Origin: a virus
Reading direction: 5' to 3' (one strand)
DNA: 64,000 bases
IMG/VR virus record: IMGVR_UViG_3300023184_003179
Coordinates: 1-64,000 of that record
Translations under genes and position numbers: made by a program
Shown: positions 8,724 to 63,905 of the stretch, in pieces
Numbering within the stretch: the stretch's first letter is position 1
How the letters are laid out: each line of letters starts with the position of its first letter
The notes under the pieces: generated by a model
Database searches by the model: none
The model's input: the letters and a program-made list of their open reading frames with translations, nothing else
Told to the model about the DNA's origin: nothing

Positions 8724-8839
8724 TTTTCTATTGTTCCTCCACATCTTAAACATCCCATATAGGTTTTACCAGTAAATGGACAGGATCCAGCATCAAACAA
8801 GTTATGTTTTTTAATCTTACAAATAAGTAACTTAATCAT
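8720..8839 (-). CDS. 39-aa Cys/His peptide (not in ORF track)
   Basis: MIKLLICKIKKHNLFDAGSCPFTGKTYMGCLRCGGTIEK; overlaps both neighbours. Confidence 0.55.
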   Translation of the reverse strand: MIKLLICKIKKHNLFDAGSCPFTGKTYMGCLRCGGTIEK

Positions 8840-21076: not shown

Positions 21077-21601
21077 TTAAATGCTTACTACGTCAACTGG
21101 ACCCATGCAAGATGGATTAAATTTAATTGCTGCATTTACTGCAGATACAACCCTATTCCTTGCATTTTTTTGTTTATCTGTTGCATATAAAACTCCGTAT
21201 GCATACTCAGACCCAGAACCCATTGCTAAATAATCAATTGTATATTTAGATAAAGACATATCTACAGAACTATGCTCATATATTTGTCCACGAACAGCAA
21301 TAATTAAACCAAGATCGCCCTCTTTTGATGTATCAACCCAAAAATCATTATAAAATTCTCTAAGTTCTTTAATAAACTTAGTCTGCATAAACTTATCAGT
21401 ATCTTTAATATTTGGAGCAGTTGGCTTAAAATTATAACGAATTCTTTCTCCGTCCATTGACCCAGCATATCCAATTAAATATGGACCAATTTTCCAAACC
21501 TTTGGAGCATCAAGTGCTAAGATTGTTCCATCATCACTAGCCCCACGATCACCAGCCATATATATCTTATCTTCATGGCGAACTACAGCAATACAAGTCA
21601 T
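21077..21601 (-). CDS. Ntn-hydrolase, HslV/proteasome beta-subunit-like peptidase
   Basis: MTCI start (Thr nucleophile after Met removal), MAGD, PKV, GYAGS, AMGSGS. Confidence 0.8.
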   Translation of the reverse strand: MTCIAVVRHEDKIYMAGDRGASDDGTILALDAPKVWKIGPYLIGYAGSMDGERIRYNFKPTAPNIKDTDKFMQTKFIKELREFYNDFWVDTSKEGDLGLIIAVRGQIYEHSSVDMSLSKYTIDYLAMGSGSEYAYGVLYATDKQKNARNRVVSAVNAAIKFNPSCMGPVDVVSI

Positions 21602-21631
21602 CAGAATACCCCTCAAGAATGCGGTATATTT

Positions 21632-33193: not shown

Positions 33194-33371
33194 CAATAAA
33201 ATCCTTTTTCTTTTTCTTTTGAGGTAAAAGTCCAACTTTTGAAATATGTTTTTTTGAACACATCCATGTTGCATCCCCTGATTCAATCCAATATCTTAAA
33301 GATGTTACTTCTTCTTGACAAGTTTTACAAGGAAACTTACCAGGGTATACAGAAAACTTTTTATCAAGCAT
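33186..33371 (-). CDS. Small zinc-finger protein
   Basis: CKTC ... CSKKH. Confidence 0.65.
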   Translation of the reverse strand: MLDKKFSVYPGKFPCKTCQEEVTSLRYWIESGDATWMCSKKHISKVGLLPQKKKKKDFIDE

Positions 33372-34377
33372 TAATTATTTTTAACTTAAGTTGTTCTTGC
33401 AACTCTAAGTCTTCCTTAACTCTATTAATAAAGCCATCACGTCCTTGCACCTTTGTACCATCATCTAGTTGATACCAAGCACCAGTTCTGTTAACAAGCC
33501 CCATTGACTCTGCAGTATCAACAAGATCGCCAATTGTATCAAGCCCAATGTCATCACCTCTGAAATAAAAGTCATATTCTCCAGATTGGAAACCTGGTGA
33601 AGTTTTAGAGAATTGAAGTTCCCAGCGAATTTTTCTGCCAGTTTTTTCTTCAATTAATTTATCTCCAACTTTAATCTTACCTTTAATTGCTTGATTATCT
33701 GATTCAGAAGAAAATAGTTTTATAATGCAAGATGAATAAAACTTTGTAGCCTGTCCACCAGAAGGCTGTTGACTTGTATACATTGCATTAATATTATTGC
33801 GTGATTGAGAGATAAGCACTAACAATGTTGGCTTAACTTTATTATTAGCATAATTTAACATTTTCCAAGCATTACTAAAGTCACGAGACTCTGCACCAAT
33901 TTGTTTAGTATTTTCAAGAGCCTTCATCTCATCTGAATCTTTTTCAAAATATATTGCAGGAAGCATTGATGTAATAGAGTCTACAACAATTAAATCTACT
34001 CCAGCATTCATTAACCCAACACCAACATCAACCATATCGCTGATTGTTCTTGCTTGTGAATAAATTAATTTAGTTGGATCTACACCCAATTGTTTTGCCC
34101 AGTCTTCAGAGTAAGACATTTCTGAATCAATCCATGCACAAACTTTGCCTTCTTTTTGTGCTAATGCAATCATTTGTAGACACATTGATGATTTGGCTGA
34201 AGACTTGCTTCCCCAAATAAGAACTTGACGACCATATGGAAGTCCACCACCTAATGCACGATTCAATCCAAAACTTGGAGTTGGTTGATACTCAAAAGTA
34301 ATTCCTTCTCCTGTACTTAAACGCTTACGCAATCTGGGATCTAGTTGTGCTAATACATCTTCTACGCTAACTGACAT
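33364..34377 (-). CDS. recA: RecA-like recombinase
   Basis: LGGGLPYGR, GSKSSAKS (variant Walker A), WIDSE, VVDSI, PSGG, GAWY. Confidence 0.9.
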   Translation of the reverse strand: MSVSVEDVLAQLDPRLRKRLSTGEGITFEYQPTPSFGLNRALGGGLPYGRQVLIWGSKSSAKSSMCLQMIALAQKEGKVCAWIDSEMSYSEDWAKQLGVDPTKLIYSQARTISDMVDVGVGLMNAGVDLIVVDSITSMLPAIYFEKDSDEMKALENTKQIGAESRDFSNAWKMLNYANNKVKPTLLVLISQSRNNINAMYTSQQPSGGQATKFYSSCIIKLFSSESDNQAIKGKIKVGDKLIEEKTGRKIRWELQFSKTSPGFQSGEYDFYFRGDDIGLDTIGDLVDTAESMGLVNRTGAWYQLDDGTKVQGRDGFINRVKEDLELQEQLKLKIINA

Positions 34378-37300
34378 TTACATCCTCCATTATTACTGTG
34401 CCATCTTTTGTTTTGCCAAAACTAAATCTATAAGCGTTTCCTTCTTGAATATGCATATACGCTTTTGGAAATGCAGTTGGAAATACTGTAACAGAATGCA
34501 AATCTCTTGCAGTATCTGCTAAAGTAAGCGATGCCATTTTTTTTCCAGTTTTTGTAATTCTTGATTTAAAAGAAACAACAAACATTTCATCATCTTTGTA
34601 TGGCAGTTGTTTATAGTTTAAAAATTTTACAAGAGCATCTGATGAACTTTTTAATTCATCAACTGGTATTGCAGACAAAATACGATTATCACTTACTAAA
34701 ATCAAACAAGTTTTTCCAGTTTCAATTTTTGTTTGTTCTTCGTCAAAAATTCCAACACTACCAGTCTTATCAAGTATTTCAACTCTTGACCAGCCTTTAC
34801 CACGTTTAATTGATTTAACCATGCCCATAATGATAAATGATCCTTTTTCTTCAAAATCTTCAATTGGTTGAATAAAGGCATAATAGTGCGAAGGAACTGT
34901 AATATTAAATTCTGGAAGATTTAAATATTCATATAGGTTTTCTTTAATTTCATTGTCGTTACGTGGATTATCAACAAAAGTTGCTGCTCCAGTTAATCTT
35001 AATGCGCTTAGTGCTCTACTGTTTACTCCATTACCTTTAGTAAATGTAAACTCTTCAAGTTCTTTGTAAGTAGCAAATGGTCTTGCTGCAATATATTTAG
35101 ATGCAATATTATCTGAAATAAATTTAATTCCAGTTAGTCCAAAACGAATTCCCTTACCTTCAATTTTAAAATCTAGATCTGAATCATTAATGTGTGGAAG
35201 TTTAACTGAAATACCCATGCGTTTTGCTTCAATTAAATATTCTGTACGACCATCTTTATCTTTTTCATTTTTAAGAAGGGCAAACATAAACTCTAACGGA
35301 TAGTAGTATTTGAGCCACGCTGTCCAATACGAGAGAGTACTGTAAGCAACGGCATGCGATTTGTTAAACGAGTAGCCTGCATGTGCTTCAAAATCATGCC
35401 ACAAATCCAAAGCGGAATTAGGAGTAATATACCTAGAGGCACCAGTAACAAACCTATCACGGAATTCATCAAATTCTTTCGCATCTTTTTTCTTTCCAAT
35501 AATTTTACGAACTTTGTCAGCCTCTGCCATTGTCATTCCACCTAGATGAACGCAAGCCTGCATAACTTGTTCCTGATATAGAATACACCCATATGTATCG
35601 CTAGTAAAATCTTTCATAATTTGATGTATATAAGATACATTTTGCTTACCGTGTTTACGAGCAATATAGTCTTTACCAATTGTATTCATTGCTCCTGGAC
35701 GCACTAGTGCATTTGAGGCTGCTAGTTCATTAAAATTCTTTACCCCCATTTTTACTAGAAGGTTTGTGTATGGAGTTGCTTCACACTGAAACACACCCTT
35801 AGTGTATCCATCAGAAAGCATCTCATAAATCTTTGAATCTGCCATGTCAAGAGTAAGTAGGTCAACATCTACATAGTGATTTTCTTTAATCATAGATACT
35901 GCATCTTGAATAACGCTCAAAGTTTTTAGTCCAAGAGCATCAATTTTAATTAAGCCAATTTTTTCTGCTTCACTCATATCAATTCCAACAACAGGAATTC
36001 TTTCATCTGATCCTGGTGACGAACGAGTTTCTAATGGAGCATATCTAAATATTGGATCTTTACTTGTTACAACTCCTGCTGCGTGAATTCCAGTACCACG
36101 AATTCTTCCACGTAACTGATCTCCATATATAACAACTTCTGGATATTTTTCTCTAAACCAAACAGTATTCTTGGATGTGCAAAACTCATCCCAAGTATCA
36201 ACAAGTTTAAGAACTTTATTAACATCTGTTAAAGGAATATCAAGAACTCTAGAAACGTCTCTTACTACTCCTTTATCTTTAAATTCAAGGAATGTAGCAA
36301 TAGATGCAACGTGTCTATACTGTCTAACTAAATAATCTTTTACATCATCACGTCTTGTGTCTTGAATATCTGTATCAATATCAGGAAAGTCATTACGCTC
36401 TGGATTAATAAATCTAAAGAAAAGAAGTCCGTGTTCTAATGGATCAATATCTGTAATTCCAAGTAGATAACAAACTAATGATCCAGCAGAAGAACCACGA
36501 CCAGGACCAACCATGATGTTTTCTTTTTTAGCCCAAGAAATCATATTTTGAACTACAAGAAAATATGGTGCAAACTTTTTATCCCGAATAATTGCAAGTT
36601 CTTCGTCTAATCTTTGTTCATAAATGTCATTGCCGAGCCAATTAGAGTTAAGTCTTTTTTCTTCTAATGCAGTAAATGCTAAGTTTGCCAACTCTTGATC
36701 TGGATTTTTATATTGAACTGGAAGAAGGTTTAACCCATCTTTAATGTCATAGTCTTCTACTGTATCTGCTAATTTTAATGTATTGTTGTAAATATCTGTC
36801 CTATTAATACCCTGCGCTTCCATAGCAGACTTAATTTCTTCATATGACAACAAGTGAATATCAAATTTGTTAAAGGTAATTTGACGATCTTCTCCATAAA
36901 GATAGTCAAGGCGAGACATCATATTTTCTTTCTTTTTAGACTTTTCATATGATGCTTCTTTATTTACTTTAGCATGTGTATTCATGAGTAATTTAAACTC
37001 TTGAATCTCTCTTTGAGATGTGTCTGAATGGTGGCAGTCTGGAGTTACAACAACATCAATTTTAAATTCATCAGCAAGTTCAATAAGATGTTTATTAATT
37101 TCTGGAGTGTTGTGTGGCATAACCTCAATGTAATAATCACTACCAAAAGTATCTTTAAACCACTGTATATGTTTCTTTGCAAGAGCAAATTCATTTTCTT
37201 CAAGCGCCTTTACAATAACGCTACTTGGACATGCAGAGGTTACAATAATTCCTTCTCTGTATTTTTTAAGAATTTCAAAGTCAAACCTTGGCTTTTTAAA

Positions 37301-37654
37301 AAATCCGTCTGTCCATGCTATTTCACTAATTTTATTTAAATTTTCTAAACCTAATTGGTTCTTGGCTAGAAGGACTATATGGTTATAGACAAGATCTTGT
37401 TGACCTTTTCTTTCAGACTTATCTCTGCGGTCAGAGATGTCTGCACACATATAGCCTTCTAGACCAAGTATTGGCTTAATACCCTTTTCTTTTGCAGCAC
37501 GGTACATTTCTCTGTGACCAGATAGTGAACCATGATCTGTAATTGCAAGAGCGGTCATACCCAACTTGCTAGCACGGTCAACGTACTCTTGTGGAGTCGC
37601 TACGCCGTCAAATAGGGAGTAGTGAGTATGAACATGTAAGCCTACGTAACTCAT
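34367..37654 (-). CDS. dnaE: DNA polymerase III alpha subunit
   Basis: PHP HVHTHYS, GRGSSAGS, PDIDTD, GIHAAG, KIDALGL, YSFNKSHA. Confidence 0.95.
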   Translation of the reverse strand: MSYVGLHVHTHYSLFDGVATPQEYVDRASKLGMTALAITDHGSLSGHREMYRAAKEKGIKPILGLEGYMCADISDRRDKSERKGQQDLVYNHIVLLAKNQLGLENLNKISEIAWTDGFFKKPRFDFEILKKYREGIIVTSACPSSVIVKALEENEFALAKKHIQWFKDTFGSDYYIEVMPHNTPEINKHLIELADEFKIDVVVTPDCHHSDTSQREIQEFKLLMNTHAKVNKEASYEKSKKKENMMSRLDYLYGEDRQITFNKFDIHLLSYEEIKSAMEAQGINRTDIYNNTLKLADTVEDYDIKDGLNLLPVQYKNPDQELANLAFTALEEKRLNSNWLGNDIYEQRLDEELAIIRDKKFAPYFLVVQNMISWAKKENIMVGPGRGSSAGSLVCYLLGITDIDPLEHGLLFFRFINPERNDFPDIDTDIQDTRRDDVKDYLVRQYRHVASIATFLEFKDKGVVRDVSRVLDIPLTDVNKVLKLVDTWDEFCTSKNTVWFREKYPEVVIYGDQLRGRIRGTGIHAAGVVTSKDPIFRYAPLETRSSPGSDERIPVVGIDMSEAEKIGLIKIDALGLKTLSVIQDAVSMIKENHYVDVDLLTLDMADSKIYEMLSDGYTKGVFQCEATPYTNLLVKMGVKNFNELAASNALVRPGAMNTIGKDYIARKHGKQNVSYIHQIMKDFTSDTYGCILYQEQVMQACVHLGGMTMAEADKVRKIIGKKKDAKEFDEFRDRFVTGASRYITPNSALDLWHDFEAHAGYSFNKSHAVAYSTLSYWTAWLKYYYPLEFMFALLKNEKDKDGRTEYLIEAKRMGISVKLPHINDSDLDFKIEGKGIRFGLTGIKFISDNIASKYIAARPFATYKELEEFTFTKGNGVNSRALSALRLTGAATFVDNPRNDNEIKENLYEYLNLPEFNITVPSHYYAFIQPIEDFEEKGSFIIMGMVKSIKRGKGWSRVEILDKTGSVGIFDEEQTKIETGKTCLILVSDNRILSAIPVDELKSSSDALVKFLNYKQLPYKDDEMFVVSFKSRITKTGKKMASLTLADTARDLHSVTVFPTAFPKAYMHIQEGNAYRFSFGKTKDGTVIMEDVNVS

Positions 37655-49651: not shown

Positions 49652-50287
49652 TTATACTTCTTCCAGCGTTACCGATATATTCCAAAGATCGTGATTATTT
49701 GCTCCACGCTTTACAACAGAATAGTTAAAGTCTGCAAAATAAACTTGAATTATTTGATTATATCTGTTTAAAGCATTATATTGATAATTTTGTCCTTCAA
49801 GATTTTTATATTTATCATATGCTAAATACATCCAGAATGGTCCTTGATGATTTTCATACCAATCAAGAAGTTCTCCTCCACCTGCTCCACCATCTGCAGT
49901 ATACTCATCTGTTGTTCTTATATTTGGGGATAATCCTGTTGTTTCGCTATACCCTGGCAAACCAGAATATCCTCTTGATGGAAGCATATTCCAAGATACT
50001 GACATATTTAGTTTATCTGCAATATGATAAGAGCGCATGCGACCGTTAATTGTTCTTTGGCGCTCTTCAATTCTTTGATTATTAAACTGCATCTCTCCTC
50101 TATTATGGTCAGATAATATAATGAATTGGTCTAATAGGTCTGTGTCAGTTTCTTCAGTTGTTGCTCCAACCTCTATGCCATTAGGTACGTATAAGCCATT
50201 GGAGAGGGTTCCAGCGTTGTTTGCCCATAGAATGCTCTGTGGTCTAGAGTATCTTTTTCTACCCGTTAAATATGCGCTTGTGGCCAT
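49652..50287 (-). CDS. Distal tail protein (putative)
   Basis: Directly after tape measure; ends WNISVTLEEV. Confidence 0.6.
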   Translation of the reverse strand: MATSAYLTGRKRYSRPQSILWANNAGTLSNGLYVPNGIEVGATTEETDTDLLDQFIILSDHNRGEMQFNNQRIEERQRTINGRMRSYHIADKLNMSVSWNMLPSRGYSGLPGYSETTGLSPNIRTTDEYTADGGAGGGELLDWYENHQGPFWMYLAYDKYKNLEGQNYQYNALNRYNQIIQVYFADFNYSVVKRGANNHDLWNISVTLEEV

Positions 50288-53200
50288 TATCTACGTTGCC
50301 CCCTAATTCTTTGTGCATCAACATTTTTAATTTGTGTCATAACTGCTCTAGCAATGTCATTAGCATTTGAACTATTTCCATTAATGTTAAAGCCTAAACT
50401 ATAATTATACACTGCTGTAGAGTTATCACTTACTGAACTAGATACATTATTTATTGGGGCACCGTAACCTGAACTTCCTGCTCCAATCATTGATGGATAT
50501 TTAGATTCATTAAGTGATTTAAGTAATGGACCAAATCTCTTAGATGCTGCTTTATTTACAACAAATTCTCCAGGGGTTAACATTGTAGGAACTGAGTCAG
50601 ATCCTATTCTTCCACCACTTGCAAAATATTCAGGAACCATTCCACCCATAGACATTGCTTTTATTTTTCCACCGTACATTCTGTCATTAATTCTAAATCC
50701 AGTAAATGGACTATCTGTCGTTGTTGATGCTTTAGTTGTTGAAGCAGTAGGAGCAGTTGGTGCTGTACCAGTAACATAGTTTGTTGTAATTGTAATTACT
50801 TTGTTATTTATTTGTTTCCATGCTGCAAGTATTCCTTCGGCTGCAGTTTTTGCTTCTTTTATATTTTCCTTTGTAAATTCAAGTTGTGCATTTGCAGCCT
50901 CTATTTTAATTCTATTTGCTTCCCATTTATCAGCAGTTTCACCAAGGTATGTAACGCTCTCAACAATCTTATCTGTATATGCGTTATAATCCTTAAGTGT
51001 TTGTGATGTACTATCAACTATTTTTTGATTTGGAATTAATGAATTTTGTTTAACTGTATAGATCTGCTGCTCAATTGCATAGTTCTTATCTTGAATAACT
51101 GTAATCTGATCTTGTAAAACTTTTTTCTGTTGTTCAAGTAAAAATGTTTGTTGTCCAATTTGATATGTACGTGCTTCAATTTGATCTTTAGTCATACCAC
51201 CAGCAGTTAATCCAGTAAGTGCTGCTTGGCGTGATGCTTCCATAGATTTTTGCTGTTGATCTATTCTTGCTGCTGCTGATGCTGCACGTGCTTCTTGTAC
51301 TGCTACTGCTGCTGCAGAAATATCTCCAGACGTTAATGCATCTGCAATTGTAAGTCTTGATTTTTCCTGTGCTGCAAGTTCTTGATTAAGTGATGATATT
51401 TTTTCAAGAGCATCAATTTGTGCATCATACTGTTTGTTAATACTGTCTTCTTGTTTACGAATAATGTCAAGATTATTATTTAATATTGTTGACTCATCTT
51501 GTAACTTTTGAATTGGTCTATCATAGTTAAGTTCAATTTTGCGATTTAATAAATCTGCTTCATGATTATTTGCATCAATTAGTTCTTGCTTAGCGTCAAT
51601 TTCTTTTTGTGCAGCATCTACTGCTTTTTGAGCATTGTCAATTTTTGACTGTAATAGATCTGCTTCTGACTTTCTTTGACGTCTAATCAATGCTTCTTGT
51701 GAATCAAAGAAGTTTTTAATAATTGCATAGGCCTTATTGTATTTTTCTATATTTGTTATTTTTTCAGTGGAAGTTCCTGCATTTTTTGCTGCGGTTGCCA
51801 TTTGCTCTAAAAACTTAGTTGCTAAATTGATTTGTGGATTAAGTTCATTTTTTACTCTTCCTGCAGTACGTTGTGTTGCTCCATCCCATTTTCCAGTTTC
51901 TGTAGAAGCAGCAGCAAGTGCATTAATCATACTTTCTGTTACTGTAATTCCAAGGGAAGCAGCCTTTAAAATAAGTATTTGATCTGCAACATTTTTAATT
52001 TTTACTGCTGCTTTTGCAAGTTCTGAAGGTAAAGATTTCATTAAATTTGACATTAAAAATAGTGCTTCAGGCTTTGGCATTGCTTTGATACTTGCAGATA
52101 TTCCATCAAATGATTGACTAAATTGTTCTGCATTAATAGTACCAGATCGTAGTTGTGTGTCAAGGCTCATAAACGTATTTTGAAGTACATTTGAAACTGT
52201 TGCTAAATTCTTTTTTAGGTCTTTGCTTAAAACTTCTACTTCTTTTACTACTCCTCCACCACGACCTGACCCTACATAAATTTTAGTTTTTGCGTATCCT
52301 TTATTAAACGCAGATTGATAATCTTTTAGCAATGTATCTACAGAACTTTGTAGTCCAGCCCGTCCTTCTTTTGTATTTAAATCAATACTCTTTAAATCAA
52401 ATTTAACATCAGTTCTTCCTGCTTCTTGCTGTAGTGTATAAATAAAATTATTTATTGCTTCTTTTGTTGCTCCTTGTCCAGCAAGTCTTAGTGCTAATGA
52501 TTTAAATACAATATCTGTAGTTTTTTTATCTGTAACAAAGTTATTGTTTTTATCTTTAGCACCCAATGTTTTAACTTGTGCTTTAAATTCTTTATCTGTT
52601 TGTAGCAATTTTCTTGTTTCTTCAACTTGTTTACTTTGTTGTGGAGTGAGACCAGATACTGCTGGTTTAGCCAATTCTAAATTACTTTTAAGTGGAGTAA
52701 AGTTTAGTATTCCTCCAAGTTTTTCAATTTGTCCAGAAGATAAATTAGCAGCCTTGCCAAGACCTTCAATTGATTGACGTTCTTTTTCTCTAAGGGCGTT
52801 AGTTATTTTTATAATTCCATACATTCCTGCCAAACCACCAGCAACCAATTTAAGTGGACCTGGAAGCATCATGATTGCTTGTGCAGCAAATGCAATACCT
52901 GAAGCCTGTCCAGCAATGTTTCCTGCTGTTCCTGGAAGCATAGATGCAGCCATTCCTACACCCATCATTCCCATGCTAGCCTTCATTGGATTAACATTTT
53001 TTAATCTTCCAAGTACGCTTGGCTTTTGTGTTGTTCCACCCATCATTCCCATTACCTTTGGACCTATAGCCATTTCTTGTTCAAGGTTTTTATATTTTAA
53101 TTGTTTCTCTAATTGTCTACGGATAGACTTTGTAACAGGATCAATTCCACCTGTTGTTCCATACAAATTTGTTTTTGAAAGTGTTGCAATATCTGCAATT

Positions 53201-56200
53201 TTTGCTGCTTCAGTTTGTAGAGGTGTTTCTCCTTGTTTTAATCCAGTAAGAAGTCCACCAATAATATTTTTTCCAAGTCGCATAGTACGTTTTGAATCGG
53301 AATGAGTTTCTGCTTTTTTTTCTAATGCAGAAAGCATTTCTTCCATTCCTGCAACACCTTGCAATTTAAGTTTTTTTACAAAACTAGATTGTCCTCTATA
53401 TGTTGCTAATGCAAGATTTCTTTTAGCCAATGCTAATTCTTGTGGAGTTCTAGAACCAACACCTGGGCTTGCAGGTCCCATTGCAGCACGAGCACCTGCT
53501 GCTGCTAATGCGCCTTTTGCTGTTGTTGCAAGTCCTGCAGACGTTGTTTTCATAAGGGCAGTATCTGCAAGCATTTCTTTTAATACTTTTGCTTGTATCT
53601 GTAATTCATCTTCAGTTAATGCAAGATTTTTTGTAATTTTTTCTTGAAGAACATTTTTTTCTTGATCTGTTGCATCTACTTTAGATAATGCAGTTAGATA
53701 TGCTTTTTGATTTCTTTCATATGTAAGAGATTGGCTTAATTCATTTTCAGCGTGGGTTTGAACAACAAATGCATTTTCTTGCCATGCTTCACCATATCTT
53801 TTTTCTGCATTTACAATTTCAATAACATGTGCTCTGTCAATTTGAAGTGCCTCATTTAGTTTGCTGCCAGTAATACCAAGGTTTTGATATTCTTTATATA
53901 CTGCTTCTGCTGCAGCATTTGCTCTTGCTACTTCTTCTGCACCTGCAGCGCCACGGCTTGCCATTTGTTCTGGAATACTTGCTGTAATTCCAGCCTTTTT
54001 TGCACTATATTTTCTTGCTCCAACAACTGATTCTTTTAATTGTACATTTTCTAAAGAATGAGTTACAATATCTAATTCTTTTATAAATGATCTAAAACTA
54101 ACTTTAGAATCATCTGCAACTCTAACTAATGTTTCTGCAACTATACCTTCTGCATCGGTTAACTCTGTTCCTCCAGACAAAATTTTATTAATTACTGATT
54201 GTATTTGTCCAAGCGCTCCAGCAGAATTAAAATTCATTTCAACTGCTTTTCCACCTACATTTAATGTACCTTTTGCATATCTACTTGCAACCTTGCCAGA
54301 AAATAATGATGCAAGTAATCCCATATTTTCTTTAGCAATACCTTTTGGAACAACCACTTCTCCAGGTGTAAGCATTGCTGGAACTGTGTCTCCATTTCCA
54401 GATCCTGGAACAACACCACCCTTTGCAAACTTTTTACGTCCCTTGATTGGCATCATCATTCCTGGATTTGCCATTGCAAAACTTGATGAAGCCTTAATAG
54501 CGGATTCATAAGCAAGAACAAGTTGTTTAACTGCTGATGTTTCTGCTGTAAATGTTTGTGTTAAATTAGCATGTGTTTGATTAAGAGAGTGTGCTGCTGC
54601 TGCAGCATCTAACTGTTCCATAGTCATGTACTGTGTTTGTTCACCAAGAACTTGTGTTTGACCAGTTAATCTTAGATATCCACCACGAAGAGTTAAAAAT
54701 AATTTTATAATGTTTGCAAGACCATTAGCAAGCAAGCCAAATGTCATAAGAAGTATTGGTCCTGCAGCACCTATTCCTACTGTTAGCAGGGTAATTACTT
54801 TTTTTGTTCCGTCTGAAAGTTTGCCAAATTTTTCAAGAATATTTCCAACAAATTCAACTATTGGAGTTGCTGCTTGTAAAAATGCCTGGCCAACTGGAAC
54901 AAGGGCTACCTTTAAATCTTCAACGCTCTTTTTAAATTTATTCATTGCAGAGTCAGCAGTCATTCCTAATTCTTTTTCAGATAATGCTGAAAGTTGCTCA
55001 ACAGAAGCATTTGCTAAATCAAGAACACGAGATGCTTGATTTCCATCTTTTGCTACGTTAGCAAATAATGTTGATAGACGAGCAAACTGAAATTTACCAA
55101 ACATTTGTTCAATTGCTCTTGCTCTTGCCAGTGGATCTAATTTATTTAATGCTTCTGCAAAGCCAATAACTGTTGCTTTAAGATCACCTTTATTGTTATC
55201 AACAATAGCCTTTGCATTAATTCCATATGATGCAAGCATATCTGATGCTTTTTTAGTTGGATTGATTAAAGATGCAAGACCAGATTTAAGTGCGTTAGCG
55301 CCTTCTGATGCATTTATTCCACCTTCTTTCATTGCTGTTAAGAAGAATGCAAGATCTTTTACGTTACCACCTAATTGTTGAATTACTGGAGCAACTTTTG
55401 GAATTGCTGTTGTAATATCATCAAGAGATGTTACAGTTTGGTTTTCTACAGCGTTTAAAAAATCAATATTAGATGCAAGATCTTGTGATGAAATACTAAA
55501 AGCATTTTGTAATGCAATAGTTGTTTGAAGAGCCTGTTGCTGATCAATTTGACCAAGAACAGCAAGCCTTGTTGCTTCTTTAGTTTGTGCTTGTAAATCT
55601 AATCCTTGAAAACCTGCTGCTGCTGCATCTGCTGCAAGTCCTACCGTTTGAGATGCTGCAACACCATATTTTGTAAATGAGTTGGCAAGTTCTTTAACTC
55701 CAGCAAGTGCTTCGTTACTTTGTGCTGGAGTTGTAAATAAATCTCCATAAACTTTTCTAAATTTTAATGCTTGAGTTTCCATATCCATAAAGGCTTTTGA
55801 TGCAGTGCTTCCAAATGCAACTAATGGAAGAGTAAAACCAACCATCAACTGACGACCAGCCCACTGTGTATTTTTACCAAAATTTAAAAGATTGGTAGAT
55901 CCTTGTTTCATTAATTGATTAAATAATGCTTGTTTTTGTGCTGTTAATTGAACCTGTGTTCCATAATCATCCATATTAAGTTGAGTTGGCATAATAGCCA
56001 TTGCTTTCATTGTGCCGTTTGTATCACGGCCCATTTTAATATATTGTGTTTGTAGTCTTTTTACACGTTCTTCTGCTACTTTGCCAATTGTGTCAAACTC
56101 TGTTTTAAACAGACGACCAAATGTTTTTGTTGATGCTCCCGCATAACGGAAGTATTCTCGCATTGAAAATTTGTTTGACTCTAATGCATGCGTAAATGAT

Positions 56201-56424
56201 TCTGCAGATGTTTTAACTGTTCGCATCTCGGCTGAAAAAGCACCGATAGAATTTATACTACTTAAAAGATTTTTTTGTAAACTTTTTTGTGCAAGTGCTG
56301 CCGTTTCACTTGATTTGGCTATTGAGGTATGGAACTGTGCAATCTGTCGTTGGAGAGATTTTAACTGTGCTAATGCAGCAGATGAATCAATATTAATGTC
56401 AATATTTGCATTAACATCAGCCAT
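50287..56424 (-). CDS. Tail tape measure protein, 2045 aa
   Basis: TP901-type core (GINASEGANALKS), Ala/Gly-rich hydrophobic stretches, coiled coils, two GG..D.VP.MLTPGE.V motifs. Confidence 0.92.
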   Translation of the reverse strand: MADVNANIDINIDSSAALAQLKSLQRQIAQFHTSIAKSSETAALAQKSLQKNLLSSINSIGAFSAEMRTVKTSAESFTHALESNKFSMREYFRYAGASTKTFGRLFKTEFDTIGKVAEERVKRLQTQYIKMGRDTNGTMKAMAIMPTQLNMDDYGTQVQLTAQKQALFNQLMKQGSTNLLNFGKNTQWAGRQLMVGFTLPLVAFGSTASKAFMDMETQALKFRKVYGDLFTTPAQSNEALAGVKELANSFTKYGVAASQTVGLAADAAAAGFQGLDLQAQTKEATRLAVLGQIDQQQALQTTIALQNAFSISSQDLASNIDFLNAVENQTVTSLDDITTAIPKVAPVIQQLGGNVKDLAFFLTAMKEGGINASEGANALKSGLASLINPTKKASDMLASYGINAKAIVDNNKGDLKATVIGFAEALNKLDPLARARAIEQMFGKFQFARLSTLFANVAKDGNQASRVLDLANASVEQLSALSEKELGMTADSAMNKFKKSVEDLKVALVPVGQAFLQAATPIVEFVGNILEKFGKLSDGTKKVITLLTVGIGAAGPILLMTFGLLANGLANIIKLFLTLRGGYLRLTGQTQVLGEQTQYMTMEQLDAAAAAHSLNQTHANLTQTFTAETSAVKQLVLAYESAIKASSSFAMANPGMMMPIKGRKKFAKGGVVPGSGNGDTVPAMLTPGEVVVPKGIAKENMGLLASLFSGKVASRYAKGTLNVGGKAVEMNFNSAGALGQIQSVINKILSGGTELTDAEGIVAETLVRVADDSKVSFRSFIKELDIVTHSLENVQLKESVVGARKYSAKKAGITASIPEQMASRGAAGAEEVARANAAAEAVYKEYQNLGITGSKLNEALQIDRAHVIEIVNAEKRYGEAWQENAFVVQTHAENELSQSLTYERNQKAYLTALSKVDATDQEKNVLQEKITKNLALTEDELQIQAKVLKEMLADTALMKTTSAGLATTAKGALAAAGARAAMGPASPGVGSRTPQELALAKRNLALATYRGQSSFVKKLKLQGVAGMEEMLSALEKKAETHSDSKRTMRLGKNIIGGLLTGLKQGETPLQTEAAKIADIATLSKTNLYGTTGGIDPVTKSIRRQLEKQLKYKNLEQEMAIGPKVMGMMGGTTQKPSVLGRLKNVNPMKASMGMMGVGMAASMLPGTAGNIAGQASGIAFAAQAIMMLPGPLKLVAGGLAGMYGIIKITNALREKERQSIEGLGKAANLSSGQIEKLGGILNFTPLKSNLELAKPAVSGLTPQQSKQVEETRKLLQTDKEFKAQVKTLGAKDKNNNFVTDKKTTDIVFKSLALRLAGQGATKEAINNFIYTLQQEAGRTDVKFDLKSIDLNTKEGRAGLQSSVDTLLKDYQSAFNKGYAKTKIYVGSGRGGGVVKEVEVLSKDLKKNLATVSNVLQNTFMSLDTQLRSGTINAEQFSQSFDGISASIKAMPKPEALFLMSNLMKSLPSELAKAAVKIKNVADQILILKAASLGITVTESMINALAAASTETGKWDGATQRTAGRVKNELNPQINLATKFLEQMATAAKNAGTSTEKITNIEKYNKAYAIIKNFFDSQEALIRRQRKSEADLLQSKIDNAQKAVDAAQKEIDAKQELIDANNHEADLLNRKIELNYDRPIQKLQDESTILNNNLDIIRKQEDSINKQYDAQIDALEKISSLNQELAAQEKSRLTIADALTSGDISAAAVAVQEARAASAAARIDQQQKSMEASRQAALTGLTAGGMTKDQIEARTYQIGQQTFLLEQQKKVLQDQITVIQDKNYAIEQQIYTVKQNSLIPNQKIVDSTSQTLKDYNAYTDKIVESVTYLGETADKWEANRIKIEAANAQLEFTKENIKEAKTAAEGILAAWKQINNKVITITTNYVTGTAPTAPTASTTKASTTTDSPFTGFRINDRMYGGKIKAMSMGGMVPEYFASGGRIGSDSVPTMLTPGEFVVNKAASKRFGPLLKSLNESKYPSMIGAGSSGYGAPINNVSSSVSDNSTAVYNYSLGFNINGNSSNANDIARAVMTQIKNVDAQRIRGQRR

Positions 56425-56445
56425 TTAGTTCCATACCTCTTTAAA

Positions 56446-56775
56446 TTATTCAGCCATAGTTACGCCAAGAACGTCTGAAACTTCAGCAAGTTTTACACCT
56501 GATGCTGCTTCAACAATCTTGTAAACAGTTGGAAGATCAACAATCTCTTCTAACTTTGAAACGTCTTCTGAGAGTTCTGGCTTATATTGTTTCATTGCAA
56601 TCTGAACACATTCCATAAGAATGTCCATAGATTTTTCATTGTTATCCGCCACTGCTCCCACACCCTCAAACTTCTTCATAAATGGACGAAGTAGAGAGAT
56701 TTTTAGAGGACGTACTGTAACCTTTGTGCCATCAATTAGCGTAAGAATTTGTTCCTCATGCGTAGTTGTTGCCAT
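56446..56775 (-). CDS. Tail assembly chaperone, short (G-like) paralog
   Basis: Between tube and tape measure genes; homologous to the N-half of 56818..57513; AGGAGG SD. Confidence 0.75.
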   Translation of the reverse strand: MATTTHEEQILTLIDGTKVTVRPLKISLLRPFMKKFEGVGAVADNNEKSMDILMECVQIAMKQYKPELSEDVSKLEEIVDLPTVYKIVEAASGVKLAEVSDVLGVTMAE

Positions 56776-56800
56776 TATTTCCTCCTATAGGTTAATAGCA

Positions 56801-56809
56801 ATTATAGCA
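56801..56809 (-). promoter_or_regulatory. Extended -10 promoter TGCTATAAT
   Basis: Intergenic, upstream of the AGGAGG SD. Confidence 0.7.
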
Positions 56810-56817
56810 TAGAAACG

Positions 56818-57513
56818 CTATTTTCTAAGGTCTTCATAATCAAGACCCATACCAATTCCAAACCCTGCTTGCCTTGCATTTTGTCCTTGAAGTGCTAAGA
56901 TATCATTGCTATCATTTGTTGCACCTTTACTGAATACTCTTGCCTTTAAATCTTCCCATTCTTTTTGTCCCCTGCTAGATCCAGCCTCTTTATCTAAATC
57001 TACACCCTGAATTGCTGCAAGAAATTTTTTCTCTTCATAATCAAGTTCTCTACGACTTGATAGAGTTGCCATTAGTTCTGGCATAGATAATGATTCTTCT
57101 AATTCTTTATAATCTTTCCAAATACCCAATAAAAAAACCTCAGATTCTATTTTTGCAAGATCCAAGTCTGACCATGTTGCTCCACTATCTGTTGCTTGAT
57201 CCTTTACAGGCTCTTCTGATTTTTGATTAATTTTAATTCCAGCAGAAACATCTAATATTTTATAAATTGTTGGCATATCAAAACTATCTTCTACGGCTTC
57301 TTTTGTTTTTGATATTTCTGGATAGTATTGTTTCATTGCTATTCTTACACACTCAACCAAATTCTCTATGGCTTCGTCATCATTTTTTGTTAATTTAACA
57401 TCTTCAAACGCCTCCATAAATTCACGTAAATATTTTATTTTTAATGGAGTTATTTCTAATTCTGAACCATCAATTAGATTTATTATTTTACTTTGATAAA
57501 CAGTTGTTGCCAT
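56818..57513 (-). CDS. Tail assembly chaperone, long (GT-like) paralog
   Basis: G-like N-half plus in-frame C-domain (LGIWKDYKELEESLSMPEL). Confidence 0.75.
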   Translation of the reverse strand: MATTVYQSKIINLIDGSELEITPLKIKYLREFMEAFEDVKLTKNDDEAIENLVECVRIAMKQYYPEISKTKEAVEDSFDMPTIYKILDVSAGIKINQKSEEPVKDQATDSGATWSDLDLAKIESEVFLLGIWKDYKELEESLSMPELMATLSSRRELDYEEKKFLAAIQGVDLDKEAGSSRGQKEWEDLKARVFSKGATNDSNDILALQGQNARQAGFGIGMGLDYEDLRK

Positions 57514-57541
57514 AATCTTTCTATTCTATCATAAACAAAAC

Positions 57542-57568
57542 AAAAAACCCACCTCGTTAGAAGTGGGT
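57542..57568 (-). terminator. Intrinsic terminator after major tail protein
   Basis: ACCCACTT-CTAACG-AGGTGGGT followed by TTTTT. Confidence 0.8.
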
Positions 57569-57590
57569 CTTTAGTTAATCTAAAGTTAGA

Positions 57591-58223
57591 TTATGACTGT
57601 CCCCAAGTACGATCTACGATCTTACCATAGGATCCAGATGTGTCTTCAGGAAGAAGACGGAATGAAACTTCAAACATTGACGCTTCGTCACGTTTAGCAG
57701 ATACTGTTACATTTTCAATTGAAAGTGCACGGTATGCTGTGTAAACACGCTCAATAGAGTCAGATGCATCACAGTCTCCAGTTCCTGGTCCAACTGCAAC
57801 AATTCCTCGTTCTACTGGACATTCTCCAAGTTCACCTGCAGATAGATTAAGTGTCTGACCTGTAGATGCTGCCTTGTTTCCTGTAAGTTGTGTATCTTTG
57901 AATGCTAGTGCAAGAAGCAAGTTTTCTAGTGTTGCTTCAGCAAAAGCGGTAGCAAGATTAACCTGCATACCTTGCTTATATAGTTTTGCAACGTCAAGAA
58001 TCTGATCAACTGCAACCTCACCGAAATCAGGTTGGAATTGTAGTTCAAGACCGTTCATGGTGTAACCTACGTTGGTGTAATCTGCTTGTGCTGAAAGCGT
58101 AGTCTTAAAAGACTCGCTTGAATCAAAACCTTCCAGTGTACCTGGAGTAAGTGTTGTATCCGCAACAAAAAGTGCTGCTGCACCAACGATAATGTTATTT
58201 GACGTACCACGGCTATATGGCAT
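57591..58223 (-). CDS. Major tail tube protein
   Basis: NIIVGAA, VGYTMNG, VDQ, AEATLENL, FRLLP; GAGGTG SD and own terminator. Confidence 0.8.
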   Translation of the reverse strand: MPYSRGTSNNIIVGAAALFVADTTLTPGTLEGFDSSESFKTTLSAQADYTNVGYTMNGLELQFQPDFGEVAVDQILDVAKLYKQGMQVNLATAFAEATLENLLLALAFKDTQLTGNKAASTGQTLNLSAGELGECPVERGIVAVGPGTGDCDASDSIERVYTAYRALSIENVTVSAKRDEASMFEVSFRLLPEDTSGSYGKIVDRTWGQS

Positions 58224-58295
58224 ATTTGTTCACCTCTTTCATAAAGTATTATTAAGTTGTTTGGCGTGTTTCCTCAAAACTAATTATACTGCCTT

Positions 58296-58865
58296 TTATG
58301 TATATCTAGAATCGGCCTCTGTTTTTATATGGTAGTCATACTCAACAATAATCTTATTGACAAAAAGGGTTCTTGCTGAGGCTAACTCTGCAACGTCTCT
58401 ACTTTCATCTGCTTGATAGACCCTAGTGTTGTGAAAGAAGATGTTGTATGGAATTGTATCCCCTTGAGAGTTTAGGACTGGATTTGCAATAGCCCAGGAG
58501 TTGATATCTTGCGCTGATGAATCTTCACGATCAAGGGCATTAGATATTACACGAACAGAGTCTATCAATTTTCCAACATCTGTTGAATACAAGAAATATA
58601 TTAATTGTTCTCTTTTACGAGCATAGAATGGCGTTGGCCTAAACCTCATAAGTCTGTCATACACAACCAACAGTGGACTTTCTGTTTGTCTTATTACAAT
58701 GTTGTCATTGTATAAATCTTCAATGTTTGTTGGAAACTGTGCTGGAACCATTGGGCTTGGATTAAGTAGGTCTGCTTCAGCAATTAAATTATAATGAGCC
58801 AATTCTGAAAGAATGTATCCATTTAAAAATGTTGGTGGAAATCCAGTATCTGTTAATATAGTCAT
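58296..58865 (-). CDS. Tail terminator/completion protein (putative)
   Basis: Position directly upstream of the tail tube gene. Confidence 0.55.
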   Translation of the reverse strand: MTILTDTGFPPTFLNGYILSELAHYNLIAEADLLNPSPMVPAQFPTNIEDLYNDNIVIRQTESPLLVVYDRLMRFRPTPFYARKREQLIYFLYSTDVGKLIDSVRVISNALDREDSSAQDINSWAIANPVLNSQGDTIPYNIFFHNTRVYQADESRDVAELASARTLFVNKIIVEYDYHIKTEADSRYT

Positions 58866-60984: not shown

Positions 60985-61320
60985 TTATTTACCGTAGTAT
61001 GAGGCTACTTCTTCAGGCTGTGCAATTCTGACTGCCTTACGAGTAATCCACTTTTCCGATGCCTCCTTTGAGACGATGTTATATCCCACTTTTACTTCTC
61101 CAACCCCATCCCAATAGATGTTTCTATCTGAATAAAGTGCTACCTTTTCAATTGGTGCTTTTTGTTCTGTAACGACTTCTGTTTGTCCGTTTGGAATAAA
61201 ACTTGCAATTACTTCTAAAATTTCTAATTTAGTAGATACCCCAAATAGATCAATGTTATTTTTCTTAGCATAAGATTTTAGTTCCATTACGGTCTTTTTT
61301 GCTAATTCTTCAATTGTCAT
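60985..61320 (-). CDS. Small protein with Rho-N/HeH-like N-terminal domain
   Basis: LAKKTVMELKSYAKKNNI...KLEIL; start may extend to 61338. Confidence 0.6.
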   Translation of the reverse strand: MTIEELAKKTVMELKSYAKKNNIDLFGVSTKLEILEVIASFIPNGQTEVVTEQKAPIEKVALYSDRNIYWDGVGEVKVGYNIVSKEASEKWITRKAVRIAQPEEVASYYGK

Positions 61321-61363
61321 ATAATCTCCCATACTCATTTGTAATTATACCAGAATATGACTA

Positions 61364-62594: not shown

Positions 62595-63905
62595 TTAGTT
62601 AAATAGGTCGGTATTTGTGAGGAAACGACCGCCCCATAGGGATTTTTGAACCACTTGTGGTGATTCCTGTACGATCTCGCCTAGATCGCCAGACTTGCGG
62701 AAAGCGGTGTCTTGTTCTACAAGATCTACTCGCTTGCCAAACTCGTTAAAGTTACTCTTAATGCCATTAACATCAGATGTTACTGTATCAAGAGACTTTG
62801 TTACTGCTGCTACCTGCTCATTAAGAGACTTAATAGTTGCAGCAAGATCGCCAAAGGCATTAGTAAGAGAAGCATTAATTTCTGAAACTGCTTTAGCAAC
62901 TTCTTCTTTAACTTCTGAAACGGCGTCAACCACTGCTTCTTCTGCTTTCTCTACTTCTACTGCTGCTTCTTCAGCAACAGGAGAATCTGCACCGCCGTCA
63001 ACTGCTTCTGCTGCAGGTGCTTCAATAGCAACTGCAACTTCTTCAGCAACTGCAGGAGTCTCTACAACTTCTGCTGGTTGTGCCTCTGGAGCAACCTCTG
63101 CATTTTCAACTACAGCGTCTACGGCTGCTTCTGTTGATTCTGTCATGGGATTTACCTCCTTAGTAATCTTAATTGTACTAATGCCTTTAGCACTATCAAC
63201 TAAGAATTTTATCATTTCTGTATTTTCTTTATCATTTTTTTCTACAAAACCTATGTTCTGCATCTTATTACCATTGGTTGGGCTTACTGCTGATTCAGCA
63301 TCTGATACCATTACAATACCGCTTTCTGAATCCCAAAATACATTTTCAACTTCTGCTTTTGATAAATATCCACTAACAACATTTTGTCCATTTACTTTTT
63401 CAATAGATACAATGTTGGCAAATTGGTTTGCTGGATTATCTACCAAAGAAAGTTCATGTAGTTCATAATTCTTAATTACACGGATTGATTTATCTATTTT
63501 TTCATCATAGGCATCGTCCCATGTCTTAATATTTCCACCGATTGAAAAACCAGTATAGGTTCCATCCAGAACCTTTTCCCATGCATCTTGTGCACCCTTT
63601 GAAACGTATGCAGATACATAGACTCCGCTGTAAAACTTCTTATCGTTTGGATCAAAATATTTATCTTCTTTAAATGAAACAATTTTTCCAACGGCTGATG
63701 GTTGGTGCATTTCACGAAGGTTTCCACGGAAGTTTTTAAATGCTTCAACGCTGGATTCTGTTGTTACAATATCGCCCTGCTTATCAACGTTATCAAGCGT
63801 TGCAAATCCTGACACCATACGGCGTTCAACGTCTATTTTTCCAATGGGCATTGAGAGACGAACATTGTCACCTTCAGTTACCCAATGAGCCTTGTTTGTT
63901 AACAT
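62595..63905 (-). CDS. Prohead protease fused to acidic scaffold domain
   Basis: VDKQGD, REMH, GFSIGG, ELSLVDNPAN; Ala/Glu-rich linker and coiled coil; C-terminal KSLWGGRF. Confidence 0.88.
   Translation of the reverse strand: MLTNKAHWVTEGDNVRLSMPIGKIDVERRMVSGFATLDNVDKQGDIVTTESSVEAFKNFRGNLREMHQPSAVGKIVSFKEDKYFDPNDKKFYSGVYVSAYVSKGAQDAWEKVLDGTYTGFSIGGNIKTWDDAYDEKIDKSIRVIKNYELHELSLVDNPANQFANIVSIEKVNGQNVVSGYLSKAEVENVFWDSESGIVMVSDAESAVSPTNGNKMQNIGFVEKNDKENTEMIKFLVDSAKGISTIKITKEVNPMTESTEAAVDAVVENAEVAPEAQPAEVVETPAVAEEVAVAIEAPAAEAVDGGADSPVAEEAAVEVEKAEEAVVDAVSEVKEEVAKAVSEINASLTNAFGDLAATIKSLNEQVAAVTKSLDTVTSDVNGIKSNFNEFGKRVDLVEQDTAFRKSGDLGEIVQESPQVVQKSLWGGRFLTNTDLFN

Follow-up and report, generated by a model that had tools for sequence, protein, structure and literature searches.

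Most long-tailed phages make both of their tail assembly chaperones from one gene by means of a programmed ribosomal frameshift. Xu, Hendrix and Duda are said to have described this for lambda gpG/gpGT (2004, 2013, 2014), and the frameshift is reportedly conserved in long-tailed phages. The G/GT frameshift ranks among the most conserved of viral recoding events, and the reason for keeping it, as opposed to using two genes, is debated; explanations commonly put forward are that the ratio is fixed, that the G module has to be identical in both products, and that both products are synthesised in one place. In lambda, as at the locus described below, tube and tape measure genes flank the chaperone genes, which yield a short product and a long product with a common N-terminal module, the long one carrying a C-terminal T extension. 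Lambda G forms a coat on the tape measure protein and T brings in the tube protein, with the ratio given as 30:1 in a passage of one review (PMC5009743).

Among actinobacteriophages, a -1 frameshift is predicted for the Streptomyces cluster BK1 phages in an excerpt of PMC10793280. The nearest published description to the arrangement reported here is that of the Microbacterium cluster EA phages. The published actinobacteriophage exception breaks the frameshift rule at the genomic position that our locus occupies, but its two open reading frames are described as G and T, each on its own, instead of two G copies of which one is fused in frame to T. A literature search found no published duplicated or fused G/GT arrangement, and an earlier mention in Xu et al. 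(2004, 2013 or 2014) is possible.

The locus lies in a 64,000-nucleotide stretch of DNA from a freshwater phage (the window), where two paralogous genes, termed GT and G below, occupy the space between the tube and tape measure genes. All of its features are on the minus strand, and they are given here from the tube gene onward.

57591..58223, minus strand: major tail (tube) protein gene, 210 aa (ORF, PHROG and homology)
57543..57572, minus strand: intrinsic-terminator-like hairpin and T run, 3' of the tube gene (hairpin scan)
57523..57531, minus strand: TGATAGAAT, resembling an extended -10 element, 9 nt ahead of the GT ATG (sequence)
56818..57513, minus strand: GT gene, 231 aa, MATTVYQSK... 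(ORF call)
56801..56809, minus strand: TGCTATAAT, extended -10 element of consensus sequence, between GT and G (sequence)
56780..56786, minus strand: AGGAGGA, Shine-Dalgarno sequence of the short G gene (sequence)
56446..56775, minus strand: G gene, short putative tail assembly chaperone paralog, 109 aa, MATTTHEEQ... (ORF call)
50287..56424, minus strand: tape measure protein gene, 2045 aa (ORF, Pfam and synteny)

The original prediction had placed a pair of paralogs between the tail tube and tape measure genes, and the pair was found there, its flanking genes being assigned by homology and Pfam. The tube gene product matches phrog_2175 at 4.1e-34 and, weakly, phrog_885 'major tail protein' at 0.0055, and shares 45% identity (E 2e-52) with the protein annotated as major tail protein in Streptomyces phage MulchMansion. 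The tape measure product matches Pfam PF10145 PhageMin_Tail at 3.9e-27, and its gene, which is syntenic with annotated tape measure genes of Streptomyces phages, starts 21 nt past the G stop with no T frame between. The predicted gene order, with the long gene (231 aa) ahead of the short one (109 aa), agrees with the ORFs, and the signals claimed for each gene are readable in the sequence, namely a terminator followed by TGATAGAAT 9 nt from the ATG of the long gene, and TGCTATAAT with an AGGAGG Shine-Dalgarno sequence for the short one. The phage is taken to be long-tailed, and its host probably belongs to the Actinobacteria. A nucleotide search of the phage collection with this DNA gave no match; the window carries a WhiB gene at 13437-13724, and WhiB is used as an actinophage marker according to an excerpt of PMC10914622.

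Pairwise alignment of the two proteins bore out the proposed paralogy: residues 1-100 of GT align with residues 1-101 of G with 44/101 identities (BLASTP, E 5e-31). Beyond this shared module the long protein runs on in frame for about 130 extra residues and the short one stops; the in-frame extension had been predicted, at about 120 aa. GT thus comprises a G-like domain (approximately residues 1-100), a linker, and a T domain (approximately residues 114-231). The unnamed family phrog_10504 corresponds to the G module, matching GT residues 1-100 at 2.1e-23, G at 2e-20, and 56/56 of the G-domain sequences examined; a second unnamed family, phrog_10474, corresponds to the T module and matches GT residues 131-222 at 2.1e-14. 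Both paralogs are under purifying selection, dN/dS being 0.175 in G and, within GT, 0.183 in the G part and 0.106 in the T part.

Are these proteins tail assembly chaperones? Three lines of evidence argue that G and GT would be such chaperones: synteny, the G/-1 T arrangement seen in relatives, and weak matches by fold and to PHROG families. It is conceivable, at a very low probability, that the pair is instead some other conserved gene pair situated between tube and tape measure genes by chance, a reading with which the sequence searches agree insofar as Pfam offers no chaperone model for GT or G, nor for the 56 G-domain sequences at E 0.1, NCBIfam gives no match for either protein, and a PDB sequence search returned nothing relevant. 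The named family phrog_1932 'tail assembly chaperone' is matched weakly by G (0.0049), and a named chaperone PHROG is matched weakly by 5/56 G-domain members (best E 0.0029). In solved chaperones (2OB9, 3KLU, 3D8L) a helical domain comes after an N-terminal beta-hairpin. The predicted models of GT and G both show a pair of strands and then helices, and fold searches with them lead repeatedly, though weakly, to tail assembly chaperones. Among 48,161 solved PDB chains, the GT model retrieves YqbN (3klu_A) at rank 1 (Z 5.2, rmsd 3.9, 85 aligned) and the HK97 tail assembly chaperone (2ob9_B) at rank 2 (Z 4.6, rmsd 3.5, 76 aligned), both covering the G domain, and the G model retrieves 3klu_A at rank 1 (Z 5.2), 2ob9_B at rank 7 (Z 4.1) and ORF12 of phage p2 (3d8l_A) at rank 47 (Z 3.4); all of these Z-scores fall below 6, and according to the tool values below 8 may mean merely a common arrangement. 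The T domain of the GT model matches only generic helical hairpins among the solved chains, and Foldseek gives no match of the whole GT model to the PDB at E <=0.001.

Against a chance pair stand its canonical position, the recurrence of YqbN, the HK97 chaperone and p2 ORF12 near the top of 48,161 chains with two separate models, and the names of the closest predicted structures. In the BFVD viral structure library, the entry that the G model matches best bears the name 'Tail assembly chaperone' (E 1.2e-6, TM 0.75), and the nearest ESM Atlas cluster is likewise named tail assembly chaperone, with sub-threshold leads to Phage_TAC_19, Phage_TAC_11 and Phage_TAC_6 at scores of 0.81-0.83. Finally, relatives of the pair carry the hallmark of chaperone genes, a short ORF with a -1-frame extension and slippery heptamers.

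A tblastn search with GT matched 127 phage records, all of them Streptomyces phages, at one place per record (127/127). The 40 matches listed are all in two pieces, under genes annotated 'tail assembly chaperone' or 'hypothetical protein'. The 231-aa GT is collinear with G in the 0 frame plus the -1-frame T ORF of these phages. The T ORF of MulchMansion, Coruscant and Circinus is in the -1 frame, overlapping G at its end, and its conservation extends upstream of any start codon. The chaperones of the Stanwilliamsviridae (clusters BE and BK, these three phages among them) are true homologues of those in the window, with approximately 38-45% identity to GT over 84-96% of its length, and they have the same neighbours, including a tape measure gene of about 6.3 kb. 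Unlike the window, the Stanwilliamsviridae encode G once and T in the -1 frame, with C_CCA_AAT as the candidate slip site in Circinus and C_CCG_GAA in the two BE phages; their genome G+C content and host also differ from those of the window.

A survey of 273 sources, comprising 244 (243 loci plus the window) and 29 further loci, set the single frameshifted form against the duplicated form. The 244 sources divide into 229 with a fused GT and a downstream G, 9 with a fused GT and <=122 nt of contig left, and 6 with split G and T; the 29 further loci divide into 9 with fused GT and G, 1 fused but cut, 18 split, and 1 cut. A second, short G follows the in-frame GT in 238/238 loci with room downstream, whereas the split loci have a single G with a -1-frame T in 24/24 and an extra G in 0/24; the surveyed loci were picked by similarity and are not independent samples, the first 238 fused sequences including only 179 distinct ones. 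A canonical in-frame X_XXY_YYZ heptamer (CCCAAAT, CCCAAAC, CCCAAAA or AAACCCA) lies in the overlap of 22/24 split loci. This co-occurrence, together with the comparison with the relatives' G and -1 T, upholds the central claim of the original prediction, namely that G and GT come from two paralogous genes instead of a frameshift, and the replacement of the frameshift by duplication and in-frame fusion is well supported by the comparison of loci.

It is likely, in our judgement, that G and GT are chaperones like lambda gpG/gpGT and that duplication of G, combined with an in-frame G-T fusion, replaced the -1 frameshift. By analogy, the same roles as in lambda would be expected of the two proteins. 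In contrast to lambda, however, there is no frameshift here, since GT is read from one uninterrupted ORF and a second gene supplies the short form; the two copies of the module are paralogous, at 44% identity, and not identical; the long gene comes first; and the ratio would be set at transcription and initiation, not by slippage.

The long gene might still give rise to a short product, by recoding or premature termination, with the short gene being redundant or repurposed, for example as a decoy or as a chaperone of another protein. Two features of the linker are compatible with this. It is the least constrained stretch of GT (dN/dS 0.33), and in the window it contains an A-rich run, after which the -1 frame ends after about 12 codons. 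Nothing demands recoding, however, and the short gene is the more conserved of the two paralogs (dN/dS 0.175), owns the strongest conserved expression signals, and is present in every fused locus with room downstream, all of which renders this alternative highly improbable.

Start signals were counted in 173 distinct related loci. Upstream of GT, a TGnTAnnnT element occurs 5-15 nt before the ATG in 173/173 loci (5-9 nt in 166), and GGAG, GAGG or AGGA occurs in the last 20 nt in 0/173, so the layout of the GT gene looks leaderless or near-leaderless. Upstream of G, TGnTATAAT is found 18-37 nt before the start in 173/173 loci and a Shine-Dalgarno sequence in 173/173 (AGGAGG in 136, a 5-mer in 24, a 4-mer in 13). 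An explicit scan for a stem followed by a T run recovered a hairpin before GT in 165/173 loci, with differing stem sequences, and a terminator in the GT-G spacer in 0/171. The window's own terminator hairpin is a stem of 13 pairs (5 G-C) with a T run behind it, and its spacer after the GT stop is 42 nt long, within a range of 27-69 nt among loci. In the Stanwilliamsviridae a terminator, TGnTATAAT and then a Shine-Dalgarno sequence precede the single G, which is the layout of the short G here; across split relatives, TGnTATAAT precedes the single G in 5/6 loci and in 11/11 distinct upstream regions. The short G would thus have kept the ancestral layout of promoter and Shine-Dalgarno sequence, the promoter being a motif only. 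Neither this nor the leaderless look of the long gene was part of the original prediction.

Within the window alone, TGNTATAAT is not over-represented, with 11 matches versus 7.67 +/- 2.91 in shuffled sequence (15/100 shuffles reach 11), and 9/10 of its minus-strand sites lie 5-57 nt before an ORF start. The start signals stand above chance because they are conserved in 173/173 distinct related loci. A consensus promoter scan that requires a -35 element listed neither putative promoter.

A G:GT ratio set by separate promoters and ribosome binding sites fits these conserved signals. We infer promoter activity, transcript starts, a leaderless start, a protein ratio and binding partners as follows. 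Transcription from the abundant tail tube gene would stop at the terminator, and the extended -10 promoter just behind it would begin an mRNA at, or no more than about 3 nt from, the GT start codon, so that GT would be translated without a Shine-Dalgarno sequence. The TGnTATAAT promoter in the GT-G spacer would add transcripts with a short leader and a strong Shine-Dalgarno sequence that encode G and then the tape measure protein, and G would consequently outnumber GT. On the lambda model, the tape measure protein would be covered by many copies of G, GT would join them through its G-like domain, and its T domain would recruit the tube protein.

Leaderless initiation is described as robust in mycobacteria, comparable to leadered translation, and as potentially efficient in Actinobacteria, in the part of PMC4633059 that deals with it, and therefore GT need not be scarce; likewise, as far as an excerpt of PMC7148126 goes, no systematic difference in protein/mRNA ratio was found, and a missing Shine-Dalgarno sequence is therefore no proof of scarce GT. 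The two paralogs might accordingly have divided their labour and be made in comparable amounts, each perhaps serving its own portion of the very long tape measure protein or its own stage of assembly, with no device for setting a ratio. Their divergence is in keeping with this. Within one genome, G and the G-like part of GT share only about 39% identity (median, 161 genomes); the core PLKI motif, the most conserved of all, carries the fixed differences K27 Y28 in GT versus S27 L28 in G; and the G part of GT evolves faster, with a median identity among relatives of 0.55 versus 0.67 for G. On the other hand, GT is collinear with the predicted frameshift product of the relatives, the fused form never occurs without a separate G (the 238 loci above), the promoter and Shine-Dalgarno sequence before G still follow the ancestral layout whereas that of GT has lost its Shine-Dalgarno sequence at every one of the 173 loci, and 18 alignment columns are at least 90% conserved and identical between both paralogs. 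Division of labour without a ratio is, in view of these points, unlikely, though less so than either of the alternatives considered above.

Metatranscriptomes contain this DNA in small shares in 24 runs. Contigs from 4 runs (4 studies) in the interval 55800-58400 cover the tube gene and the short G in 4/4 and GT only patchily, but contig cover of this kind cannot rank genes or reveal transcript ends, and the gaps in GT carry no inference.

The preferred reading, namely two genes in place of one frameshifted gene, bears on the debate over why the frameshift is retained. The two-gene alternative is fixed in the window's lineage and appears in thousands of metagenomic sequences, and close relatives of this lineage still frameshift, at a conserved CCCAAAY heptamer. 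The coexistence of frameshifting and duplicated forms among close relatives therefore constitutes a natural experiment on the conservation of the frameshift. The two-gene lineage opens the way to tests of the resulting ratio, of the interchangeability of the G modules, and of the costs and benefits of exchanging one arrangement for the other. Annotation is also affected, as pipelines that expect a frameshift will mislabel the G and GT genes.

We would give roughly even chances to a broader scenario, in which a large, abundant freshwater actinophage-like clade abandoned the near-universal frameshift for two transcription and initiation units, one a leaderless GT gene and the other a G gene with the ancestral promoter and Shine-Dalgarno sequence. 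No longer bound to a single sequence, its G modules would have diverged to about 39% identity and, as the fixed differences in the PLKI motif suggest, may have specialised, GT for instance binding the tape measure protein at a site of its own. Neither a quick G-domain tree nor a T-domain tree settles the number of switches to the fused form; in the T-domain tree, all 13 fused rows fall within one 26-row subtree, together with 9 split rows. Among the best 150 T-domain cluster representatives, T stands alone in an ORF of <=130 aa in 133, and G and T share one ORF in 9. In some relatives a methyltransferase gene is inserted between GT and G, and the signals of G are kept.

Read from the minus strand, the tail genes of the window follow the order tube, terminator, long gene, short paralog and tape measure, just as the original prediction had placed them:

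58223..57591, minus strand: major tail protein (tube) gene, 210 aa; 45% identity (E 2e-52) to the protein annotated as major tail protein in Streptomyces phage MulchMansion
57572..57543, minus strand: terminator-like hairpin and T run
57513..56818, minus strand: GT, 231 aa
between the 231-aa and 109-aa genes, minus strand: GT-G spacer, 42 nt
56775..56446, minus strand: G, 109 aa
56424..50287, minus strand: tape measure gene, 2045 aa, beginning 21 nt past G; Pfam PF10145 PhageMin_Tail, 3.9e-27

Across their first ~100 residues, GT and G are identical at 44 of 101 positions (E 5e-31), which confirms the predicted paralogy, and the promoter-like and ribosome-binding motifs also lie exactly where that prediction put them. 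The 88,586-base virus record that contains the window (G+C 33.4%) holds no G module copies other than these two.

Residues 1-100 of GT correspond to phrog_10504 and residues 131-222 to phrog_10474 (PHROGs; both families unnamed), and the short G corresponds to phrog_10504 only. A tblastn search of GT against 50,697 phage records yields matches in 127, all Streptomyces phages and one place each; all 40 listed rows fall into two pieces, and the underlying genes are annotated as 'tail assembly chaperone' or 'hypothetical protein'. MulchMansion, Coruscant, and Circinus each have a 114-116-aa gene as the first piece; the second is a -1-frame ORF overlapping the end of that gene by 52-55 nt. The -1 frame of the Streptomyces relatives is conserved well upstream of the second gene's annotated start, as expected from a translational fusion, and their -1-frame motif SWDELNLAQLEAEVF lines up with the window's TWSDLDLAKIESEVF. 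For cluster BK1 phages, a published report predicts a -1 frameshift giving two chaperones (PMC10793280). The two-piece match, the conserved -1 frame, and the BK1 prediction together argue that the long protein is the in-frame counterpart of the frameshift product GT, and the short protein that of G.

Fold comparisons lend supportive but weak evidence to the chaperone identity. In the models of GT and of G alike, helices come after a beta-hairpin. Searching 48,161 solved chains with the GT model gives as top two matches, both over the G domain, YqbN (3klu_A; Z 5.2, rmsd 3.9, 85 aligned) and then the tail assembly chaperone of HK97 (2ob9_B; Z 4.6, rmsd 3.5, 76 aligned); with the separate G model, 3klu_A ranks 1, 2ob9_B 7, and phage p2 ORF12 47. 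The BFVD viral structure library yields as its top hit an entry called 'Tail assembly chaperone' (E 1.2e-6, TM 0.75), a name also borne by the nearest ESM Atlas cluster (score 0.98), which may be the protein's own. Curated Pfam, NCBIfam, and PDB sequence families gave no match, nor did Foldseek against the PDB.

Relatives are plentiful in metagenomes, where 420 stretches of viral contigs encode one. Among candidate proteins 127-405 aa long, 6672 of 7095 reach E 0.001 or better, with lengths of 230-233 aa throughout the 120 matches listed. Each fetched locus was assigned a class by scanning its stop-to-stop frames with G- and T-module HMMs. Among the initial 244 sources (the window and 243 loci), 229 encode G and T in a single frame and a second G downstream of it, nine have a fused gene and at most 122 nt of contig remaining, and six have a single G and a -1-frame T. 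A further 29 loci, fetched using two distant T ORFs, comprise nine fused with a second G, one fused and cut, 18 split with a single G, and one cut. The extra G is present in 238/238 fused loci with room downstream versus 0/24 split loci, in keeping with the prediction that two genes replace a frameshift, among loci that are non-independent (picked by similarity, some sharing a contig, with 179 distinct sequences among the first 238 fused ones).

An in-frame canonical slippery heptamer (CCCAAAT, CCCAAAC, CCCAAAA or AAACCCA) occurs in the G/T overlap of 22 of the 24 split loci. The two exceptions, lacking a canonical X_XXY_YYZ heptamer, are cluster BE Streptomyces phages (L001:3286-3294, and L002 at the same place); in them C_CCG_GAA sits precisely where the open -1 frame has its first codon, a place occupied by C_CCA_AAY in relatives, and this may explain why both ORFs are annotated separately in many records. 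In the closest of the split relatives examined, L166, T is followed by the tape measure gene rather than by a second G. Its major tail protein (L166:1596-2537) has 313 aa rather than ~210, the extra being a segment inserted past the conserved N-terminus. A T-domain search of 1.84 billion representatives returns 286 clusters, the best 150 of which include 133 T-only ORFs of at most 130 aa, nine with G and T in one ORF, and eight longer T-only proteins that are fragment- or chimera-like. The 133 T-only against nine one-ORF clusters among these 150 indicate that the split form dominates family diversity, and that the fused form is limited to the part of the family nearest the window.

A quick G-module tree places the 48 G parts of GT on one side of a branch (SH-aLRT 85) and groups 47 short G copies with six single G genes of split relatives, a topology that, with modest support, fits one old duplication. 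The T-domain tree puts 13/13 fused rows into one 26-row subtree (SH-aLRT 88) together with nine split rows; its internal branching is not separated, and it speaks neither for nor against a single origin of the fused form. Both paralogs are under purifying selection: over 1500 pairs, with dS near saturation, median dN/dS comes to 0.175 in G and 0.183 in the G part of GT, against 0.33 in the linker and 0.106 in T. Across 161 genomes, median identity is 0.67 among G copies, 0.55 among G parts of GT, and 0.39 between the two within one genome. In these genomes GT and G share the same residue at 18 columns conserved to at least 90%, and at two neighbouring positions within the PLKI..LR motif each paralog has its own fixed pair (K27 Y28 in GT, S27 L28 in G).

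Start signals were compared over 173 distinct loci, after 50 duplicates and six loci without upstream sequence or a clear start were dropped. Before GT, TGnTAnnnT ends 5-15 nt upstream of the ATG in 173/173 loci (5-9 nt in 166), its commonest forms being TGATAGAAT (64 loci), TGGTAAAAT (35), and TGGTAGAAT (25), and GGAG, GAGG or AGGA occurs in the last 20 nt before the ATG in none of the 173. We read this start as a leaderless or near-leaderless layout. Before G, every one of the 173 loci has TGnTATAAT 18-37 nt upstream of the ATG and a Shine-Dalgarno, which is AGGAGG in 136 loci and shorter in the others (5-mer, 24; 4-mer, 13). In 165/173 loci the stretch from the tube gene to the GT element contains a hairpin and T run, its stem sequence varying widely among loci; the GT-G spacer contains one in 0/171. 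The single G of split relatives is preceded by terminator, TGnTATAAT, and Shine-Dalgarno in the same order in five of six loci (the sixth has AGATATAAT) and in 11/11 further distinct upstream regions; because this layout is shared, the short G probably kept the ancestral expression unit and GT lost its leader. Several related loci carry a methyltransferase gene between GT and G, with the G signals kept:

L020:4725-5372 (also L021-L023, L040, L056): class I SAM methyltransferase, 215 aa; Pfam Methyltransf_25, 4.7e-17; GT-G spacer ~780 nt

GT and G may thus be separable expression units. Of ten minus-strand TGNTATAAT sites in the window, nine lie 5-57 nt upstream of an ORF start; the motif count of 11 is within chance (7.67 +/- 2.91), and the elements upstream of GT and G are absent from the output of a consensus scan that requires promoters to have a -35 element. 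Three more ORF starts in the window (63905, 61338, and 17999) have TGnTATAAT 5-9 nt ahead and no room for a Shine-Dalgarno:

62595-63905, minus strand: XkdF-like protease/scaffold gene, leaderless-type start
60985-61338, minus strand: 117-aa gene after the capsid gene, leaderless-type start
17724-17999, minus strand: 91-aa gene, leaderless-type start

Leaderless starts may be common to many genes of this phage.

In lambda, according to a review, the tape measure protein is bound by many gpG and few gpGT (30:1), whose T part recruits the tube protein (PMC5009743). By analogy, the window's pair would work likewise on its tape measure and tube proteins, although the frameshift that defines the lambda system is absent. 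The terminator would stop tube-gene transcription, a promoter right behind it would give a leaderless GT message, and a spacer promoter would add G and tape measure messages bearing a strong Shine-Dalgarno. Fed by both promoters and better initiated, G would exceed GT. This G:GT ratio is the weak link of the proposal: one paper describes leaderless translation in mycobacteria as comparably robust to leadered (PMC4633059), and another finds no systematic difference in protein/mRNA ratio (PMC7148126), so that a GT without Shine-Dalgarno is, on these accounts, not proof of scarcity.

The window's pair has homologues in the chaperones of Streptomyces phages of the Stanwilliamsviridae. Microbacterium cluster EA phages, as described in print, have G and a separate T, in contrast to the duplicated G and fused GT of the window. 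A literature search found no published description of the latter arrangement, of which earlier mention is possible, and it is apparently an undescribed variant of a known chaperone system. With close relatives using either a frameshift or a duplication, the arrangement is of interest to research on recoding and phage assembly.

The window also encodes a family used as a marker for phages of Actinobacteria:

13437-13724, minus strand: WhiB-family transcription factor gene; Pfam PF02467, 3.7e-12

This gene, together with the relationship to Streptomyces phages and the leaderless starts, suggests a host among the Actinobacteria; WhiB, the 33% G+C, and the lake-metagenome relatives suggest a low-G+C freshwater one. 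A sugar/cell-envelope block (663-7001, plus strand; 8832-13440, minus strand) holds glycosyltransferases, an NAD-dependent epimerase/dehydratase, methyltransferases, a PIG-L deacetylase, a nucleotidyl transferase, and a tryptophan-halogenase-like gene (8832-10433; PF04820, 3.1e-102); the envelope and halogenase-like genes are unusual auxiliary genes for a phage. Elsewhere on the minus strand (16566-16844, 18122-18535, 21077-21616, 33364-37654) lie genes for thioredoxin, the small heat-shock protein Hsp20, a proteasome-subunit-like protein (weak match), RecA, and DNA polymerase III alpha.
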